Both the position numbers and the translations under genes were made by a program. DNA of 64,000 nt from an uncultured Sphingorhabdus sp. (GTDB lineage: Bacteria; Pseudomonadota; Alphaproteobacteria; Sphingomonadales; Sphingomonadaceae), in assembly GCA_964597055.1 (NCBI GenBank), contig CAZQWC010000008.1, forward strand, positions 121,603-185,602. Direction: 5' to 3'. This document shows, piece after piece, positions 12,984 through 44,590 of the stretch. The notes beneath the pieces are model-generated. The model did not search any database. It was not told the DNA's origin and saw nothing but the letters and a program-made list of their open reading frames with translations. Position 1 is the stretch's first letter; every line of letters begins with the position of its first letter.

Positions 12984-13045
12984 TTGTGCACTGCACAATT
13001 TTCATTGACTCCCACCCCCTGAATCATTATTGTGCACTGCAACAA
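12984..13045 (+). promoter_or_regulatory. Two PhaR-like operators upstream of phasin
   Basis: TTGTGCA-C-TGCACAA perfect inverted repeat (12984-12998) and TTGTGCACTGCAACAA (13030-13045). Confidence 0.75.
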
Positions 13046-13065
13046 AACAGAAATGGTGCATGAAA

Positions 13066-13689
13066 ATGGCAAGCAAGGCTGAAACGACCGCAACTAAAGC
13101 CCGCAAGACTGCGGCGCCCAAGGCTGCACCCGCAAAGCCGGTTGTCACTGCAACCGAAGCAACGCCTGCAAAGGCAGAGCAGCTGGTGACGAGCATTGTC
13201 TCTGTGGATGACAAACCCCTCTCTGAAGGAGTCAAGAAAATGACTGACACCGTAGAAAAGACCGCCAAGGAAGCACAGGCCAAGGCTGCAGACTTTTTCG
13301 CCGACGTTCGCGAAAAGGCAACCGAAGCTGCTGAAAAGGGCAAGAAGTTTGCTGCTGAAGCAACCGAGTTCAACAAGGCCAACCTCGAAGCACTGGTTGA
13401 AGCCGGCAAGATCGTCGCCAAGGGCGCTCAGGATCTGGGCAAGACCAACCTCGAATATGCCAAGAAGAACTTCGAAGAAGCTCAGGCAGCCGTCAAGGAA
13501 GTCACTGGCGTGAAGAACCCGACCGACTTCGTGAAGCTGCAGGGCGAATGGATGCGCAAGGGCTTTGACACTGCGGTTGCGCAGGGTTCGAAGAACACCG
13601 AAGCGCTCGTGAAGCTTGCAAACGACATGTTCCAGCCGATCTCGAACCGTTTCGCGGTCGCTGCCGACTTTTTCAAGAAGGCTGCATAA
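13066..13689 (+). CDS. phaP: Phasin (PHA granule protein) with Ala/Lys/Pro-rich N-terminal extension; alternative start at 13240
   Basis: Ala/Lys/Glu-rich helical phasin core (FNKANLEALVEAGK...KNPTDFVKLQ), PhaR-like boxes and PHA gene context. Confidence 0.88.
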   Translation: MASKAETTATKARKTAAPKAAPAKPVVTATEATPAKAEQLVTSIVSVDDKPLSEGVKKMTDTVEKTAKEAQAKAADFFADVREKATEAAEKGKKFAAEATEFNKANLEALVEAGKIVAKGAQDLGKTNLEYAKKNFEEAQAAVKEVTGVKNPTDFVKLQGEWMRKGFDTAVAQGSKNTEALVKLANDMFQPISNRFAVAADFFKKAA

Positions 13690-13705
13690 GCCCTCCTGAA
13701 AGATT

Positions 13706-13778
13706 GCGCCGGGGCGTTAGAGCACCTGCCCCCTCTCTCCTCTCCTCCCTGGAGGCAGGAAACCACACAAACCGGCGC
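13706..13778 (+). ncRNA. Structured phasin 3'-UTR with a C-rich (anti-SD-like) loop
   Basis: Outer stem GCGCCGG/CCGGCGC, inner stem CCTGCC/GGCAGG, loop containing TCTCCTCTCCTCCC. Confidence 0.4.
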
Positions 13779-13784
13779 ATTTTG

Positions 13785-13825
13785 AAAGAGCCGTCCTTCC
13801 CAATCGGAAGGGCGGCTTTTTCTTT
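13785..13825 (+). terminator. Rho-independent terminator after phasin
   Basis: AGCCGTCCTTCC-CAATC-GGAAGGGCGGCT followed by TTTTCTTT. Confidence 0.85.
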
Positions 13826-13835
13826 GCTCATCTCG

Positions 13836-13974
13836 ATCCTCCCCATCGACTTGCGATGGGGAGGGGGACCGTTCGGCGCGCAGCGGCGAATGGTGGAGGG
13901 GACTGCAACGGTGCAATTCCCCTCCGTCATCGCTTCGCGATGCCACCTCCCCATCGCTAGTCGATGGGGAGGAT
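13836..13974. repeat. 139-bp MITE/RIME-like palindromic element
   Basis: Perfect 15-bp terminal inverted repeats ATCCTCCCCATCGAC/GTCGATGGGGAGGAT plus four internal hairpins. Confidence 0.8.
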
Positions 13975-39228: not shown

Positions 39229-39930
39229 GTGCCGTCCATCAAGGTCGCAACCTACAATATCCGCAAATGCGTCGGTACCGATCGCCGCCGCAATCCGGAG
39301 CGCATTTTAGAGATACTGGGTGAAATCGACGCCGACATCGTCGCACTTCAGGAGGCCGACAGACGTTTCGGAAACCGGCTGAGCGCGATCCCCTACCATT
39401 TGCTGCTCGAGCAGGGCTTGTATCGACCCGTTGAAATCGGCGGGCGGCCGCAAAGCATCGGCTGGCATGGCAATGCCCTACTGGTGAAGCGGGGCATCGA
39501 GGTCAGGCACAGCGAGATTGTTCCGTTACCGACCCTAGAACCACGTGGCGCCGTGCTCGCCGATCTGGTCGTCGACGGCCATCCGCTGCGCGTCATCGGT
39601 ACGCATCTTGACCTTTCGGGGCTCTGGCGGCGGCGGCAAATCCGCGCGCTGCTGGCCCGGCTCGACGGCGCGTTTCACCATCTGCCCACCGTGCTGATGG
39701 GGGATTTCAACCAATGGTCGGATCGCGGCGCGCTTTCGGAGTTCGCATTCCACCACCACCGGCTGGTCAAAACACCGCCCAGTTTCCACAGCAACCGCCC
39801 CGTGGCGCGGCTTGATCGCATCATCGTCAGCCATGATATCGCGGTAGAGAGCAGCGGCGCGCATATCTCAGACCTGTCGAAACGGGCATCAGACCATCTG
39901 CCCCTTTGGGCGACACTCAAGCATGCCTAA
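39229..39930 (+). CDS. Endonuclease/exonuclease/phosphatase family protein
   Basis: VATYNIRK, ALQEAD, MGDFN and SDHLP motifs. Confidence 0.9.
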   Translation: MPSIKVATYNIRKCVGTDRRRNPERILEILGEIDADIVALQEADRRFGNRLSAIPYHLLLEQGLYRPVEIGGRPQSIGWHGNALLVKRGIEVRHSEIVPLPTLEPRGAVLADLVVDGHPLRVIGTHLDLSGLWRRRQIRALLARLDGAFHHLPTVLMGDFNQWSDRGALSEFAFHHHRLVKTPPSFHSNRPVARLDRIIVSHDIAVESSGAHISDLSKRASDHLPLWATLKHA

Positions 39931-39969
39931 TTTTTATACAGCTAAATATCGATGATTATTTTTTAGGCA
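39924..39969. promoter_or_regulatory. Tandem NtrC-like enhancer sites
   Basis: Two 17-bp sites, TGCCTAA-TTT-TTATACA and TGATTAT-TTT-TTAGGCA, together defining TGCCTAA-N3-TTAGGCA, upstream of a sigma54 promoter. Confidence 0.6.
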
Positions 39970-40021
39970 TTGTATCGAAGACTTGAGTCTGCAACCCGCG
40001 GAATCCAAGGCTTTCTAATTC

Positions 40022-40037
40022 TGGCACACCCTTTGCA
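40022..40037 (+). promoter_or_regulatory. sigma54 -24/-12 promoter of glnK-amtB
   Basis: TGGCACACCCTTTGCA: GG-N10-GC, near consensus. Confidence 0.88.
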
Positions 40038-40070
40038 TCGTGCATTGCACAACCACAAAAGGGGGCGTGC

Positions 40071-40409
40071 ATGAAATATATCATTGCCATCATCAAGCCG
40101 CACAAGCTGGACGAGGTGCGCGAAGCACTCGCCGGATTGGGCGTGTCGGGCATGACCGTGACCGAAGTCAAAGGCTTTGGCCGCCAGAAAGGGCAGACCG
40201 AAGTTTATCGCGGCGCGGAATACACCACCAATATGGTGCCCAAGATCAAGATCGAAGTCGCATGCACCAGCGAGAGCGCAGGGGCGGTGGTCGAAGCAAT
40301 CCAGGCTGCCGCAGCCACCGGATCAATCGGTGACGGCAAGATCTTCGAAATCGAACTCGCTGCAGCAACGCGTATCCGCACCGGCGAAGCCGGCGACGCG
40401 GCGCTGTAA
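40071..40409 (+). CDS. glnK: P-II nitrogen regulatory protein
   Basis: AIIKPHKLDEV, GFGRQKGQTEVYRGAEY and GDGKIF motifs; 112 aa, directly upstream of amtB. Confidence 0.93.
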   Translation: MKYIIAIIKPHKLDEVREALAGLGVSGMTVTEVKGFGRQKGQTEVYRGAEYTTNMVPKIKIEVACTSESAGAVVEAIQAAAATGSIGDGKIFEIELAAATRIRTGEAGDAAL

Positions 40410-40443
40410 CCAGAACATCCGGACTAACCAGGGAAGAAAGCAT

Positions 40444-41907
40444 ATGCTTAAACACATGAAATGGGTTGGCGCGACGGGGGCGGCGGTATTTGCCGCACTC
40501 CCCGCTTTCGCGCAGGAGGCAGCCGAAGCGGCTGCAGAGGGTGCTGCCGCCGCAACGGCTGCGGTCGCTGATGGCCCGATCAAGGCCCCCACCGTCGAAC
40601 AGATGGCGGGCATGGTCGACAAGGGCGACACCACCTGGATGCTGATCAGCTCCGCACTTGTGCTGCTGATGTCGATCCCGGCGCTCGCGCTTTTCTACGG
40701 CGGCCTCGTTCGCACCAAGAACATGCTCAGCCTGCTGATGCAGGTGTTCATGATCGTTTCGGTCGCGGCGCTTGTCTGGGTCAGCTATGGCTACAGCCTT
40801 GCCTTCACCAGCGGCGGGCCATTTATCGGCGGTTTCTCCAAGGCATTCCTCGCAGGCGTCGATGCGACCACACTCGCAGCGACCTTCAGCAACAATGTCT
40901 ACATTCCGGAATATGCCTTTGTCGTGTTCCAGATGACCTTTGCTTGCATCACGCCGGCGCTGATTGTCGGTGCCTTTGCAGAGCGCATCAAGTTCACGCC
41001 GCTGATCATCTTCACGGTATTGTGGCTGACTTTTGCCTATTTCCCCATCGCACACATGGTGTGGTACTGGGCTGGCCCGGACTTCCTGCCCGACGCACCG
41101 ACTGATTTCGGTTACCTGTGGGGCATGGGAGCTCTGGATTTCGCAGGCGGCACCGTTGTCCACATCAATGCTGGTATCGCTGGTCTTGTCGGATGCCTCA
41201 TCATCGGCAAACGCGTCGGCTATGGCAAGGAAGCCACCCCGCCGCACAGCCTTACCATGACCATGATCGGCGCTTCGCTGCTGTGGGTGGGCTGGTTCGG
41301 CTTCAACGCTGGTTCCAACCTTGAAGCCAACGGCCTTGCTGCGCTCGCCTTCATCAACACCTTCGTCGCCACCGCTGCAGCAGCTGTTGCATGGTGCATC
41401 ATCGAGCAGTTCCACCACGGCAAGCCTTCATTGCTTGGCGCGGTTACGGGTGCAGTTGCCGGCCTTGTGGCAATCACGCCGGCCAGCGGGTTCGCGGCAC
41501 CCATGACCTCAATCCTGCTTGGCTTCGCAGCTTCGGCCGTCTGCTACCTCTTCGTCGCAGTGGTGAAGAACAAGCTGAAATATGACGACACCCTCGACGT
41601 ATTCGGTGTGCACGGTATCGGTGGTATCGTTGGCGCCATCGGTACCGGCATCGTTGCAGACCCAGCACTCGGCGGACAGGGCTTCTTTGACTACACCGTG
41701 TTCCCGGCTGTTCCTGGCACCTATGACATGGCAGCCCAAGTGATCACCCAGATCAAGGCTGTCGGCATCACCGTGGTGTGGACCGGCGTTGTCTCGGCGG
41801 TTCTTTTCTACGCGCTCAAATTCACCCTCGGCCTGCGCCCGAGCGAAGAAGCCGAACGCGAAGGGCTCGACCTCTCCGAACATGGCGAACGCGCCTACAA
41901 CTACTAA
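40444..41907 (+). CDS. amtB: Ammonium transporter
   Basis: GDTTWMLIS, FQMTFACIT, DFAGGTVVHINAG, WVGWFGFNAGS and DDTLDVFGVHG motifs. Confidence 0.97.
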   Translation: MLKHMKWVGATGAAVFAALPAFAQEAAEAAAEGAAAATAAVADGPIKAPTVEQMAGMVDKGDTTWMLISSALVLLMSIPALALFYGGLVRTKNMLSLLMQVFMIVSVAALVWVSYGYSLAFTSGGPFIGGFSKAFLAGVDATTLAATFSNNVYIPEYAFVVFQMTFACITPALIVGAFAERIKFTPLIIFTVLWLTFAYFPIAHMVWYWAGPDFLPDAPTDFGYLWGMGALDFAGGTVVHINAGIAGLVGCLIIGKRVGYGKEATPPHSLTMTMIGASLLWVGWFGFNAGSNLEANGLAALAFINTFVATAAAAVAWCIIEQFHHGKPSLLGAVTGAVAGLVAITPASGFAAPMTSILLGFAASAVCYLFVAVVKNKLKYDDTLDVFGVHGIGGIVGAIGTGIVADPALGGQGFFDYTVFPAVPGTYDMAAQVITQIKAVGITVVWTGVVSAVLFYALKFTLGLRPSEEAEREGLDLSEHGERAYNY

Positions 41908-41961
41908 GGTTATGGAAGGCGGAGCTGGGTAGGCGACGCTTTCCACCAAATTTCAGAGCTT

Positions 41962-42068
41962 GGCGGCGGGGTTTATTCCTCCCTCTCCCAAATCCCGCTG
42001 CCTCCCGATGTTCCTCCCGCGAACGTCCAACTTCCACGCCCGGGTCCGAAATGGCCCGGGCTTTTTTT
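41962..42068 (+). ncRNA. Candidate 3'-UTR sRNA with two CCUCCC-loop hairpins (cuckoo/alpha-r14-like architecture)
   Basis: Hairpin GGCGGCGGGGTTT/AAATCCCGCTGCC with loop ATTCCTCCCTCTCCC; hairpin GATGTT/AACGTC with loop CCTCCCGCG; then a terminator. Confidence 0.6.
42038..42068 (+). terminator. Rho-independent terminator
   Basis: GCCCGGGTCC-GAAAT-GGCCCGGGC followed by a T7 tract. Confidence 0.88.
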
Positions 42069-42199
42069 GTGGCATAAATGTTACAATTCGCAGGGTATTT
42101 GCAGGACAACACGATTGGGGGTGCCGCAAACCGCCTTATCCCGACTATAAAAGGACCACTGCGGACCTAGATAACCGTGGACAAATTCGGGAGTAGGAC

Positions 42200-44590
42200 A
42201 TGAAAAACTTGAAAAGCCGCACTTCGGCTCGCCATTTCATTCAACTTGTCGCCGGAACCTCGCTCGCCGCCCTGATTGCGCAGGGTGCGACGGCGCAGGA
42301 TGCCGAGGAACAAGCCGATGACAATGTCATCATCGTCACCGCGACCAAGCGTGACGCCAACCTGCAGGACATTCCTTTTTCGATTAACGCCCAGACCGCA
42401 GCGGACATTCAACGCTCGGGCGCAGTCACGCTTGAAGATCTGTCGCGCAATGTCGCTGGCCTTGCCGTCCAGAATCTCGGGCCCGGCCAAAGCCAGGTTT
42501 CGGTTCGCGGCGTGTCTGCAGGGCAAGTCGTGCGCGACCAACCTGGCGTAAAAGAGCAAGTCGGCGTCTACCTCGATGAATCAGTGGTCTCGTTGTCGCT
42601 GTTTACGCCTGACCTTGACCTGTTCGACCTCAACCGTGTTGAAACCCTGCGCGGGCCGCAAGGCACATTGTTCGGTTCGGGCTCGGTCGGCGGTACAATC
42701 CGCTATATCACTAACCAGCCCCGCATCGGAACCACCGAAGGCATGGTCGAAGGCAATCTGAACCTTGTCGATGGTGATGATATTGGCGGCCATTTGAAAG
42801 GTGCCGTGAACGTTCCGCTCGGTGACAATGCCGCGCTTCGCGCCGTCGGCTACTTCACCCGCTATGGCGGCTTCATCAATGCCATCGGCCCGGCTGGTGG
42901 CGAAGATGTCAACAGCGGCGAACGCTATGGCGGTCGTCTGGCGCTGACCTTTGAACCTTCGGACAGCGTCAGCATAACGCCGCGAGTGGTTTATCAGAAG
43001 GTGAAGGCTGACGGCTTCAACCGGCAGGAAATCTACAGCCTCTTCGCGAACCGCTTCACCACAACACGGCCAGCCGTCACCTTTGACGAGCGCGAGCAAT
43101 ATCTGTTGCTCCGCGAAGGTTTTGAAGACGAAACGCTGATTGCCGATGCGACGATCAAGATCGGCATGGGCGGTGTGGATTTGACCTCGGTCACCTCGTA
43201 CATCGACCGCAGCATTTTGGTAAGCCGCGATGCAAGCGCGCTGACCGGTTCGGTGTCGGTTGACCTTGGCTATCCCGACGCAGCCGTCCTGTTGCCCTCC
43301 AACCTTCGCGACACCACCGACCTACAGACGTTCACGCAGGAACTTCGCCTGTCTTCGAACGGCGATGGCCCGCTGCAGTGGGTTTTTGGCGGCTTCTACT
43401 CGAAAATCGATCGCGCTTATGCCCAGCGCCTCCCAACGCCGGGCTATGACGCGTTTACCGATGCCACGCTGGGTGCAGGCACTTCGGCTGCTGTCGCAAA
43501 TGGCTTCCCGGCCAATTCGCCGTTCAACTCCGATCTGCCTTATGACATCAAGCAGTTCGCGATTTTCGGTGAAGTTTCCTACGATCTGACCGACGCGCTC
43601 AACGTGACTGCGGGCGGGCGTTATTATGATTTCAAAGAAGAACGCACGATCACTACGGGCGGCCTATTTGCCAATGGCGACAATGGTGTTGTCGACAGAA
43701 CGAAGTCCGATGGTTTCACGCCGCGGCTGTTGCTCAGCTATGATGTCAGCGAAGATGTGACAATCAATGCGCAGGCCTCGAAAGGCTTCCGTCTGGGCGG
43801 CGTCAACGATCCGCTCAACACCCCGCTCTGCAACGCGCAGGATCTTGCCCTGTTTGGCGGTTTTCAGAATTATGATGACGAAACGCTGTGGAACTATGAA
43901 CTGGGCATCAAGACCCAGGGCGATGGTTTCACGTTCAACGCGGGCGCCTTCTACAACGACATCAAGAACCTGCAGGTTACGCTTGATGCCGGAAGCTGCT
44001 CGTCGCGCATCGTCTTCAACGTCGACAAGGCGCACAGCGCGGGCGTCGAGTTCGAGCTTGGCCTCGAGCCTGCCGAAGGGCTTGACCTTTCACTTTCAGG
44101 CAGCCTCATCGAAGCCGAATTCGATACCACGCTCCCCGGCGCGCTGGCTCCGGCAACCGGTATCCGCGAAGGCAATCGCCTGCCGTCAGTGCCGAAGTTC
44201 CAATTGTCGGCAGCCGCCAGCTATGAATGGCCGATCAGCGATGGTGCAGACGCCTATGTCTCGGCATCGTTCCAGCATGTCGGCAATCGCTTTACCCAGC
44301 CAGCGGATCAGGAGAACAACCCGCGCACCTTTACCCACGGTCTTCCCTTTGGTGGGCAGCCTGTGGGCTCGGCGACAACGGTCAACCTGCGCCTGCCGAG
44401 CTATGAGTTGGTCAATCTGAGTGCAGGCGTTGATTTTGACGGCGGCCTATCGCTGGTCGCTTATGTCAACAACCTGTTCGACGAAAATGCGCTGTTGTCG
44501 TTTGACCGTGAACGTGGCGGACGGGCGCGTCTTGGTTATAATGTCGGCCAGCCACGCACCTTCGGCATCACCGCACGCCAGAAATTCTGA
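42200..44590 (+). CDS. TonB-dependent outer-membrane receptor
   Basis: Signal peptide, TonB box IIVTATKR, ETLRGPQGTLFG, terminal Phe (ITARQKF). Confidence 0.95.
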   Translation: MKNLKSRTSARHFIQLVAGTSLAALIAQGATAQDAEEQADDNVIIVTATKRDANLQDIPFSINAQTAADIQRSGAVTLEDLSRNVAGLAVQNLGPGQSQVSVRGVSAGQVVRDQPGVKEQVGVYLDESVVSLSLFTPDLDLFDLNRVETLRGPQGTLFGSGSVGGTIRYITNQPRIGTTEGMVEGNLNLVDGDDIGGHLKGAVNVPLGDNAALRAVGYFTRYGGFINAIGPAGGEDVNSGERYGGRLALTFEPSDSVSITPRVVYQKVKADGFNRQEIYSLFANRFTTTRPAVTFDEREQYLLLREGFEDETLIADATIKIGMGGVDLTSVTSYIDRSILVSRDASALTGSVSVDLGYPDAAVLLPSNLRDTTDLQTFTQELRLSSNGDGPLQWVFGGFYSKIDRAYAQRLPTPGYDAFTDATLGAGTSAAVANGFPANSPFNSDLPYDIKQFAIFGEVSYDLTDALNVTAGGRYYDFKEERTITTGGLFANGDNGVVDRTKSDGFTPRLLLSYDVSEDVTINAQASKGFRLGGVNDPLNTPLCNAQDLALFGGFQNYDDETLWNYELGIKTQGDGFTFNAGAFYNDIKNLQVTLDAGSCSSRIVFNVDKAHSAGVEFELGLEPAEGLDLSLSGSLIEAEFDTTLPGALAPATGIREGNRLPSVPKFQLSAAASYEWPISDGADAYVSASFQHVGNRFTQPADQENNPRTFTHGLPFGGQPVGSATTVNLRLPSYELVNLSAGVDFDGGLSLVAYVNNLFDENALLSFDRERGGRARLGYNVGQPRTFGITARQKF

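Follow-up and report, generated by a model that had tools for sequence, protein, structure and literature searches.

Two groups of alphaproteobacterial small RNAs (sRNAs) are among the known RNAs closest to the element described here. The cuckoo RNAs CcsR1-4 of Rhodobacter sphaeroides are made from the 3′ untranslated region (3′ UTR) of the ccaF1 mRNA and freed by RNase E at U-adjacent sites, with their 5′ ends mapped at ACUUC and GUUUCC (PMC8034643), which puts their expression under the parent promoter; base pairing with GGAGG-type ribosome-binding sites has been proposed for this group, which a survey of 2,680 genomes located only in Rhodobacteraceae, four families of Rhizobiales and Polymorphum, with none in Sphingomonadales (PMC4615179). 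As for NfeR1 of Sinorhizobium meliloti, the alpha-r14 RNA, such pairing has been shown; this RNA is repressed by NtrC and silences ntrBC (PMC10746234). The present analysis concerns the 3′ UTR of the ammonium transporter gene amtB (positions 41908-42068) in a stretch of 64,000 nucleotides (nt) from an uncultured Sphingorhabdus sp. (contig CAZQWC010000008.1, assembly GCA_964597055.1), hereafter the window; an earlier note had singled out this UTR as the candidate source of a nitrogen-regulated anti-Shine-Dalgarno (aSD) sRNA.

The element is a real, order-wide and undescribed RNA family at the end of a nitrogen-stress operon, and no description of an amtB-linked sRNA was found in the literature. 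Its function is read with less certainty, as set out below.

A conserved RNA behind amtB

Eighty amtB loci were taken from species-representative genomes, 79 of them with downstream DNA, and the layout after the stop codon was alike in nearly all the Sphingomonadales loci: (A)AGNUUGG, a GC-rich stem with a CU-rich loop, ..CC.., GUUCCUCCYGCGRAC, a spacer and a terminator. A covariance model, R1, was built for this conserved unit, and matches at E ≤ 4e-6 were taken as positive. R1 gave one strong match per locus, directly 3′ of amtB, in 67 of the 79 amtB-ascertained loci (at least 61 bits in 62 of the 67), with the held-out L009, L010, L012, L015 and L076 among the positives; nothing comparable occurred elsewhere in 600 kb. 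The copy number is one per locus and per 64-kb window, and the match at amtB is the sole strong one in the window studied here. The named isolate Sphingomonas parapaucimobilis (L201) has the RNA as well (61.6 bits), and so does Sphingorhabdus buctiana CGMCC 1.12929 (L001), with 95.7 bits; both can be cultured.

The association holds when the ascertainment is reversed. A 24-nt pattern for hairpin 2, scanned against metagenome contigs, returned 80 loci, 64 of which were R1-positive; wherever these had sufficient upstream DNA (60 loci), amtB ended 22-127 nt before the pattern, with glnK upstream and with AmtB proteins 31-99% identical to that of the window. The 16 pattern matches without an R1 match lack amtB and are chance matches. 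Downstream, the gene varies: the TonB-dependent receptor that starts at 42200 in the window is kept as neighbour in 6 of the 80 loci only. From the motif scan and the varying neighbour it follows that the RNA belongs to the 3′ end of glnK-amtB, with any Amt clade; judged from these sequences, it follows amtB across the order Sphingomonadales. A mobile or repeated terminator cassette was rejected, given that all evaluable R1-positive loci found by the motif follow amtB and the R1-negative ones are without it, and a function tied to the TonB-dependent receptor was rejected on account of the 6 loci in 80.

That the element exceeds chance is concluded chiefly from the conservation and covariation it shows over more than 100 further genomes. 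Alignment A1, with 53 amtB-ascertained sequences, gave an RNAalifold consensus of three helices; the pairs were counted again in 100 distinct sequences, in a fitted alignment that leans towards the model, its slid controls staying at 41-55% nonetheless. Canonical pairs filled 94.8% of the pair cells with 53 sequences and 96.4% with 100, against 76.0 and 73.6%, respectively, in shuffled controls and 41-55% in both alignments once the partners were slid by 1-3 columns. Compensatory changes were present in 23 of 28 pairs in the two sets alike, 0 of 500 shuffles matched any measure in either alignment, and the frequent G-U pairs are compatible with the + strand only.

The helices differ in how they are conserved. 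Hairpin 1 (compensatory changes in 12 of 13 pairs) and the terminator (covariation at each of the 10 stem pairs in the family) drift freely in sequence, and the hairpin-2 core, GUUC-CUCC(C/U)GC-G(A/G)AC, is invariant in 53 of 53 sequences of A1, with a covarying pair at its flank (UA 39, CG 31, GC 13, UG 12). The hairpin-1 loop has a median of 16 nt and is 90-93% pyrimidine across the family; it contains CUCC in 84 of 100 sequences and in 50 of 58 amtB-ascertained members. Before hairpin 1, the motif AGNUU recurs in 117 unique sequences with frequencies of 0.86 (A), 0.82 (G), 0.96 (U) and 0.87 (U), followed by G at 1.00 and G at 0.97; positions 5′ of it, AAAUUUCA included, are not conserved across the family. 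The idea that the 5′ AGCUUGG pairs over a distance with the CCAACUU spacer was considered and dropped: the two do not covary, and many members lack the spacer.

Some members are smaller. In L062 (4330-4398), L059 (4311-4394), L030, L037 and L053, hairpin 1 is missing, the stop codon leads straight into hairpin 2, and the terminator comes next; the last three have GUUCCUCCCCAAGGAAAC as hairpin 2, with CCUCC partly paired.

Regarding its architecture in the window (Table 1), the UTR has a fold z-score of -3.15. The two strands of the 64 kb contain 29 copies of CCTCCC, which equals the shuffle expectation, and three of these lie on one strand within 41 nt of the amtB 3′ UTR: at 41978-41983 in the loop of hairpin 1, at 42013-42018 in hairpin 2, and between the two. 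The bases of the motif have a predicted unpaired probability of ~1.0, those that close stems excepted, and the last four bases of the middle copy (UCCC), located in the linker, reach 1.0. The terminator is the common 3′ end of the amtB mRNA and of the RNA unit, its loop (UCCGAA) is without an aSD motif, and the AACUU-like spacer before it is common in the family and variable in length. Hairpin 0 lies outside the conserved unit and is confined to the Sphingorhabdus-like clade, where compensatory changes maintain it, as with GGGGGACG/CGUUCCCC in L010 and L012; Novosphingobium and Sphingomonas do without it, and their stop codons are 0-20 nt from the RNA unit.

Table 1. Coordinates of the features of the glnK-amtB locus in the window and, in the last row, of the amtB 3′ elements of Rhodobacterales in the numbering of their own loci
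Feature	Position	Strand	Basis
sigma54-type box TGGCACaccctTTGCA, TGGCAC-N5-TTGCA, near-consensus, 5′ of glnK	40023-40038	+	read from sequence
glnK, P-II nitrogen regulator	40071-40409	+	Pfam P-II, E 1.3e-28
amtB, ammonium transporter, 487 aa; stop TAA 41905-41907	40444-41907	+	Pfam Ammonium_transp, E 1.4e-113
Hairpin 0, GGAAGGCG (41914-41921) paired with CGCUUUCC (41937-41944)	41914-41944	+	fold
Single-stranded AU-rich linker, AAAUUUCA (41948-41955), then AGCUU (41957-41961)	41948-41961	+	
Conserved RNA unit	41955-42068	+	covariance model R1, 92.1 bits, E 2.6e-25
Hairpin 1, 13-bp stem, 15-nt pyrimidine loop AUUCCUCCCUCUCCC with CCUCCCUCUCCC	41962-42002	+	fold
Additional CCUCCC, starting in the base of hairpin 1 and ending in the 4-nt linker between hairpins 1 and 2	42001-42006	+	
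Hairpin 2, core GUUC/GAAC 42010-42024, loop CUCCCGC	42007-42027	+	fold
Single-stranded spacer CCAACUUCCA before the terminator	42028-42037	+	fold
Intrinsic terminator, stem 42038-42061 (9 bp, 8 GC), 6-nt loop, U7 42062-42068	42038-42068	+	
amtB 3′ elements of Rhodobacterales/Paracoccaceae	L071 4311-4430; L036 4304-4416; L070 4358-4482; L065 4407-4519		

The anatomy drawn in the earlier note, namely hairpin 0, the linker, two CCTCCC hairpins and the terminator, was recovered at the positions it had assigned, and its structured RNA with exposed aSD loops turned out to be conserved with covariation in more than 100 genomes. Both of its CCTCCC motifs stand; it had overlooked the middle copy. It had also named conserved stems with unconserved loops as the pattern that would speak against it, and the reverse was found, since it is the stems that vary and the loops that are conserved. 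One part to be revised is the cleavage stretch: the note had placed it at AAAUUUCA, which is not conserved in the family, and the conserved motif is the AGNUU just downstream, at 41957-41961.

Beyond the order, the aSD hairpins are absent from the amtB 3′ ends of S. meliloti, Rhizobium, Shinella, Methylobacterium, Tistrella, Azospirillum and Paracoccus pAMI6, and a blastn search of the element against plasmids returned terminator-like Azospirillum matches only. The amtB 3′ UTRs of the Rhizobiaceae S. meliloti, Rhizobium and Shinella (L202 2431-2530, L203 2491-2630, L208 2422-2525) share CCCGUCGCGG and hairpins before the terminator; they contain no CCUCC, their R1 scores are weak (22-30 bits), and they are possibly distant relatives of the family.

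The operon and its transcript

The AmtB of the window is 98% identical to that of Sphingorhabdus buctiana. As the earlier note had it, this is, by its promoter box, a sigma54 operon: besides the near-consensus box of the window, 57 of the 70 related loci that could be evaluated have a GG-N10-GC box of the sigma54 type at 47-72 nt upstream of glnK, and the loci without it are mainly Rhodobacterales. From what is generally known of glnK-amtB regulation, the promoter is presumably controlled by NtrC and nitrogen limitation.

Several metagenome loci have a further glnK, about 65-69% identical, whose start lies 70-200 nt beyond the RNA element (L122 2272-2607, L132 8372-8707, L156 2514-2849; also L093, L151 and L160), which puts the RNA between two tandem glnK(-amtB) units there.

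The RNA unit begins 0 to ~75 nt after the amtB stop, depending on the locus, and stop codon and AGNUU motif share bases in L015 and L067. Third-codon positions vary freely over the last 70 codons of amtB, and therefore no conserved promoter is hidden in the coding sequence (CDS); a promoter embedded in the amtB 3′ end is for this reason unsupported, and a search for a sigma70-like site serving the RNA unit found none. The variable spacing, the unconstrained synonymous sites and the missing sigma70-like site together give good support to an RNA unit that, to judge from its sequence, has no promoter of its own.

Sixteen public RNA runs were examined, as contigs only. Metatranscriptome contigs with 0 mismatches join CDS and UTR (X26, 41280-42030; X25, 41741-41989; X27, 41820-41993); the coverage of X26 ends at the terminator, and the contigs of X26, X30 and X37 stop before it. 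From the spacing, the CDS, the sigma54 box and these contigs, the RNA is therefore taken as the tail of a sigma54-driven operon transcript. Two of the four better-covered runs continue past the terminator, a sign of read-through or of DNA carry-over. In eight low-coverage runs, chosen because they hold the UTR, only about 41790-42090 of the locus was assembled, a pattern that is suggestive only.

Upstream in amtB, at 41215-41376, all RNA and DNA runs pile up to a word depth of 200-970x in contigs of 33-60 nt with mismatches; this pile-up is a conserved AmtB motif of other organisms and not expression of this locus.

A proposed released regulator and the competing explanations

The favoured reading is that the RNA is an aSD sRNA released from the 3′ end of glnK-amtB, which represses other mRNAs; this is considered on balance probable, and from its sequence the amtB tail would most likely serve as a nitrogen-starvation riboregulator. 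The last ~110 nt of the glnK-amtB transcript (about 41957-42068) form a conserved module, consisting of the CU-loop hairpin, the CUCC(C/U)GC hairpin and the terminator, made only when the sigma54-type promoter fires, presumably in nitrogen limitation via NtrC. An endonuclease, most likely RNase E, would cut within AGNUU before hairpin 1, a candidate site that is single-stranded, marks the 5′ boundary of conservation and is compatible with the U-adjacent sites of this enzyme. The product would be an sRNA of ~110 nt with three exposed aSD sequences, and the 110-120 nt expected in the earlier note agree with the conserved unit; hairpin 0, which lies 5′ of the cut, would shield the new end of the amtB fragment. 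Other mRNAs with GGAGG-type ribosome-binding sites would then be paired there by the sRNA and translated less, a step for which the conserved, exposed CCUCCC argues. By this route the operon would gain a non-coding output, like GlnZ from glnA in enterobacteria and CcsR1-4 from ccaF1 in Rhodobacter. Within the window, translation initiation regions (TIRs) of the GGGAGG type number three only.

Several observations weigh against this proposal. The RNA runs are low-depth assembler contigs with no discrete small RNA among them; the contigs of X29 (41923-42006) and X30 (41791-42028) cross the proposed cleavage site uncut, and UTR depth equals CDS depth in the four better-covered runs. Since RNAs of ~110 nt drop out of standard libraries, the absent peak is uninformative. 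The sigma54 consensus is the sole ground for the NtrC dependence; 8 of 58 relatives have a hairpin-1 loop without any CUCC; and the hairpin-2 loop is fully invariant, GCG included, which goes beyond the needs of generic Shine-Dalgarno pairing and keeps alive a protein-binding or single-partner role.

This last point leads to the explanation that the RNA binds a protein or acts as a decoy, with hairpin 2 (GUUC-CUCCYGC-GAAC) recognized by a specific RNA-binding protein (of the DUF1127 type, say, or Hfq/ProQ-like) or by one dedicated RNA, so that the loops are not generic aSD sites. It would account for a 15-nt core that is invariant in all 53 sequences, stem and GCG included, next to helices that drift freely, and for the minimal variants L062 and L059, which retain just hairpin 2 and the terminator; a precedent exists in Rhodobacter, where CcaF1 binds the CcsR RNAs (PMC8034643). 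Still, no candidate protein is linked to the locus, and the CCUCC content agrees with the established aSD logic of alphaproteobacterial sRNAs, which makes this explanation improbable. An action in cis only, in which the aSD loops fold back on the ribosome-binding site of glnK or amtB or set the half-life of the mRNA, and thereby tune GlnK and AmtB, is unlikely to a lesser degree. Such a case is the icaR 3′ UTR of Staphylococcus aureus, with a C-rich anti-SD motif that acts in cis on its own 5′ UTR. The strict single-copy link to amtB, kept across AmtB clades only 31% identical, is what a cis element would show, the RNA contigs are uncut CDS-UTR molecules, and the hairpin-2 loop, CCUCCUG, and the amtB TIR, ACAGGAGGGAA, are complementary in Novosphingobium. 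This complementarity is not kept in the Sphingorhabdus clade, whose loop reads CCUCCCG and whose amtB and glnK TIRs read AGGGAAG and AGGGGG, respectively, and loop and TIR do not covary, which lowers the icaR-like explanation; conserved self-pairing with the glnK or amtB TIR was looked for and not found, and three redundant aSD sites behind a conserved single-stranded boundary motif suit a released regulator better.

Less credence still is given to an independent sRNA gene with its own promoter within or just after the amtB 3′ end (a type I 3′ UTR sRNA), as is the case for DapZ and MicL. One contig, X28, starts at 41960 with no CDS coverage, as such a gene would predict; its depth is only 3 and it continues through the terminator, and the spacing of 0-75 nt between CDS and unit, the unconstrained synonymous sites at the CDS end and the lack of a promoter-like site all speak for very low odds. 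That the region is a mere terminator with incidental upstream hairpins has a strong terminator in its favour and is otherwise barely credible: hairpins 1 and 2 covary or stay invariant over more than 100 genomes, and the amtB genes of Rhizobiaceae, Methylobacterium, Tistrella and Azospirillum terminate without such aSD hairpins. Given the comparative data, this last explanation is untenable.

The release of an aSD sRNA can be extended to a broader statement, which is regarded as quite possible, if short of an even call: an order-wide, single-copy aSD riboregulator would be made in fixed ratio with AmtB upon nitrogen starvation and would throttle a set of mRNAs, with hairpin 2 serving one RNA or protein partner, and Rhodobacterales would have an architecturally different, cuckoo-like counterpart at the amtB 3′ end. 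If true, this would be a previously unrecognized post-transcriptional arm of the alphaproteobacterial nitrogen stress response, whose control is understood mostly via NtrBC, PII and sigma54. Freshwater, soil, the phyllosphere and wastewater all harbour many sphingomonads, which have almost no characterized sRNAs; the outcome for this group is a conserved RNA, a covariance model and more than 100 homologues usable for comparative target prediction.

Relation to described RNAs

Rfam 15 covariance models were scanned against 39500-43000 at E ≤ 10 and against the whole window at the gathering threshold. The best match was RF02344 (ar14, alpha-r14, NfeR1), aligned along the full length of the model at 41956-42068 with 29.5 bits and E 0.0074, below its gathering score of 58.8; suhB/mmgR (RF00519, alpha-r8; 20.1 bits, E 0.61, gathering 41) and the betaproteobacterial toxic sRNA (22.9 bits, gathering 50) were likewise below threshold, and CcsR1 (RF02791) had no match at E ≤ 10 in 39500-43000. 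At gathering, no Rfam family was found anywhere in the 64-kb window, and none in the element of 20 relatives, the only hit being a tRNA elsewhere in L058. The idea that the element belongs to a known Rfam family was rejected, as the ar14, toxic-sRNA and suhB matches are all sub-threshold. Of the checks proposed in the earlier note, the Rfam and covariation ones were thus run, with the outcomes given here and above (no family at gathering; 23 of 28 pairs compensatory); its assignment to the alpha-r14/cuckoo RNAs does not hold, with 29.5 bits against 58.8 for ar14, no CcsR1 match and the canonical CCUCCUCCC absent from all loops of the element. Its statement that NfeR1 is tied to NtrC is sound, and the direction is that NtrC represses NfeR1, which in turn silences ntrBC (PMC10746234).

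A second 3′ UTR in the window drew attention. Behind the phasin gene (13030-13689, Pfam Phasin_2), positions 13689-13826 (+) fold into a long-range stem around a hairpin whose CU-rich loop, CCCUCUCUCCUCUCCUCCCU, has 17 nt, and a 17-bp terminator comes after the stem (minimum free energy -61.5, z -4.65, 0 of 200 shuffles). It may be a second 3′ UTR anti-SD RNA and recalls MmgR, an aSD sRNA that controls phasins in S. meliloti; the scans gave no Rfam family for it and 11.6 bits with R1, and with E 1.7 the element at 13719-13821 was rejected as a paralogue of the amtB RNA. Next to it, at 13836-13974, are two copies of a palindromic unit, CCTCCCCATCG...CGATGGGGAGG, similar in appearance to repetitive extragenic palindromic (REP) sequences, and to this unit is due the local cluster of CCTCCC on both strands.

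Returning to the amtB RNA, it has in common with the cuckoo RNAs CcsR1-4/RSs0680 of R. sphaeroides (RF02791) the hairpins that expose CCUCC-type anti-SD loops. The parent of those is a DUF1127 gene and they form tandem multi-copy arrays, whereas the element is a single unit behind amtB; the loops of the former are CCUCCUCCC on hairpins of other sizes, and those of the latter CCUCCCUCUCCC and CUCCYGC. The two aSD hairpins of the element are, in addition, very unequal (13 bp with a 15-nt loop and 5-7 bp with a 7-nt loop) and carry a variant motif.

With NfeR1 it shares several redundant aSD motifs and the link to nitrogen stress and NtrBC (PMC10746234). NfeR1, however, has a gene of its own, with LsrB as activator and NtrC as repressor, and the element is an operon tail, presumably NtrC-activated; NfeR1 has three hairpins, each with an identical unpaired CCUCCUCCC (PMC10746234), in place of the loops AUUCCUCCCUCUCCC and CUCCCGC. 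An ar14 RNA would be expected to have a regulated promoter of its own, and the element starts 0-75 nt after the amtB stop, where no promoter-like site was found.

The amtB 3′ ends of Rhodobacterales (L036, L065, L070, L071) also follow glnK-amtB and display CCUCCUCCC or CCUCCCUC in a hairpin or terminator loop. Their architecture differs, with 35-47 bits for ar14 (gathering 58.8) and only 13-22 bits for R1, and this form may be either homologous to the Sphingomonadales RNA or convergent with it. This amtB-linked, cuckoo-like RNA of Rhodobacterales is missing from the conserved neighbourhoods listed by the cuckoo paper. As for the icaR 3′ UTR, the likeness is the C-rich anti-SD motif in a 3′ UTR; the difference is that conserved self-complementarity was not found for the element.

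Finally, in its strand (that of the mRNA), in its place directly behind the stop codon and in its use of the intrinsic terminator of the mRNA, the element is like the type II 3′ UTR-derived sRNAs. GlnZ, the sRNA from the glnA 3′ UTR of Enterobacteriaceae, offers the parallel of an NtrC-controlled nitrogen-assimilation mRNA with a shared terminator (PMC9731577). It has no similarity in sequence or structure to the element, comes from another parent gene and another bacterial class, and uses specific seeds (e.g., for sucA) and not aSD loops; its processing is experimental, that of the element deduced. The amtB RNA would extend to a new order and a new parent gene both the release of 3′ UTR sRNAs from nitrogen-assimilation mRNAs, as with GlnZ, and the anti-SD "cuckoo" principle, in a family that is missing from Rfam. 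In conclusion, the element is a member of none of ar14, CcsR and GlnZ, and the term cuckoo-like describes its probable mode of working, not its family.

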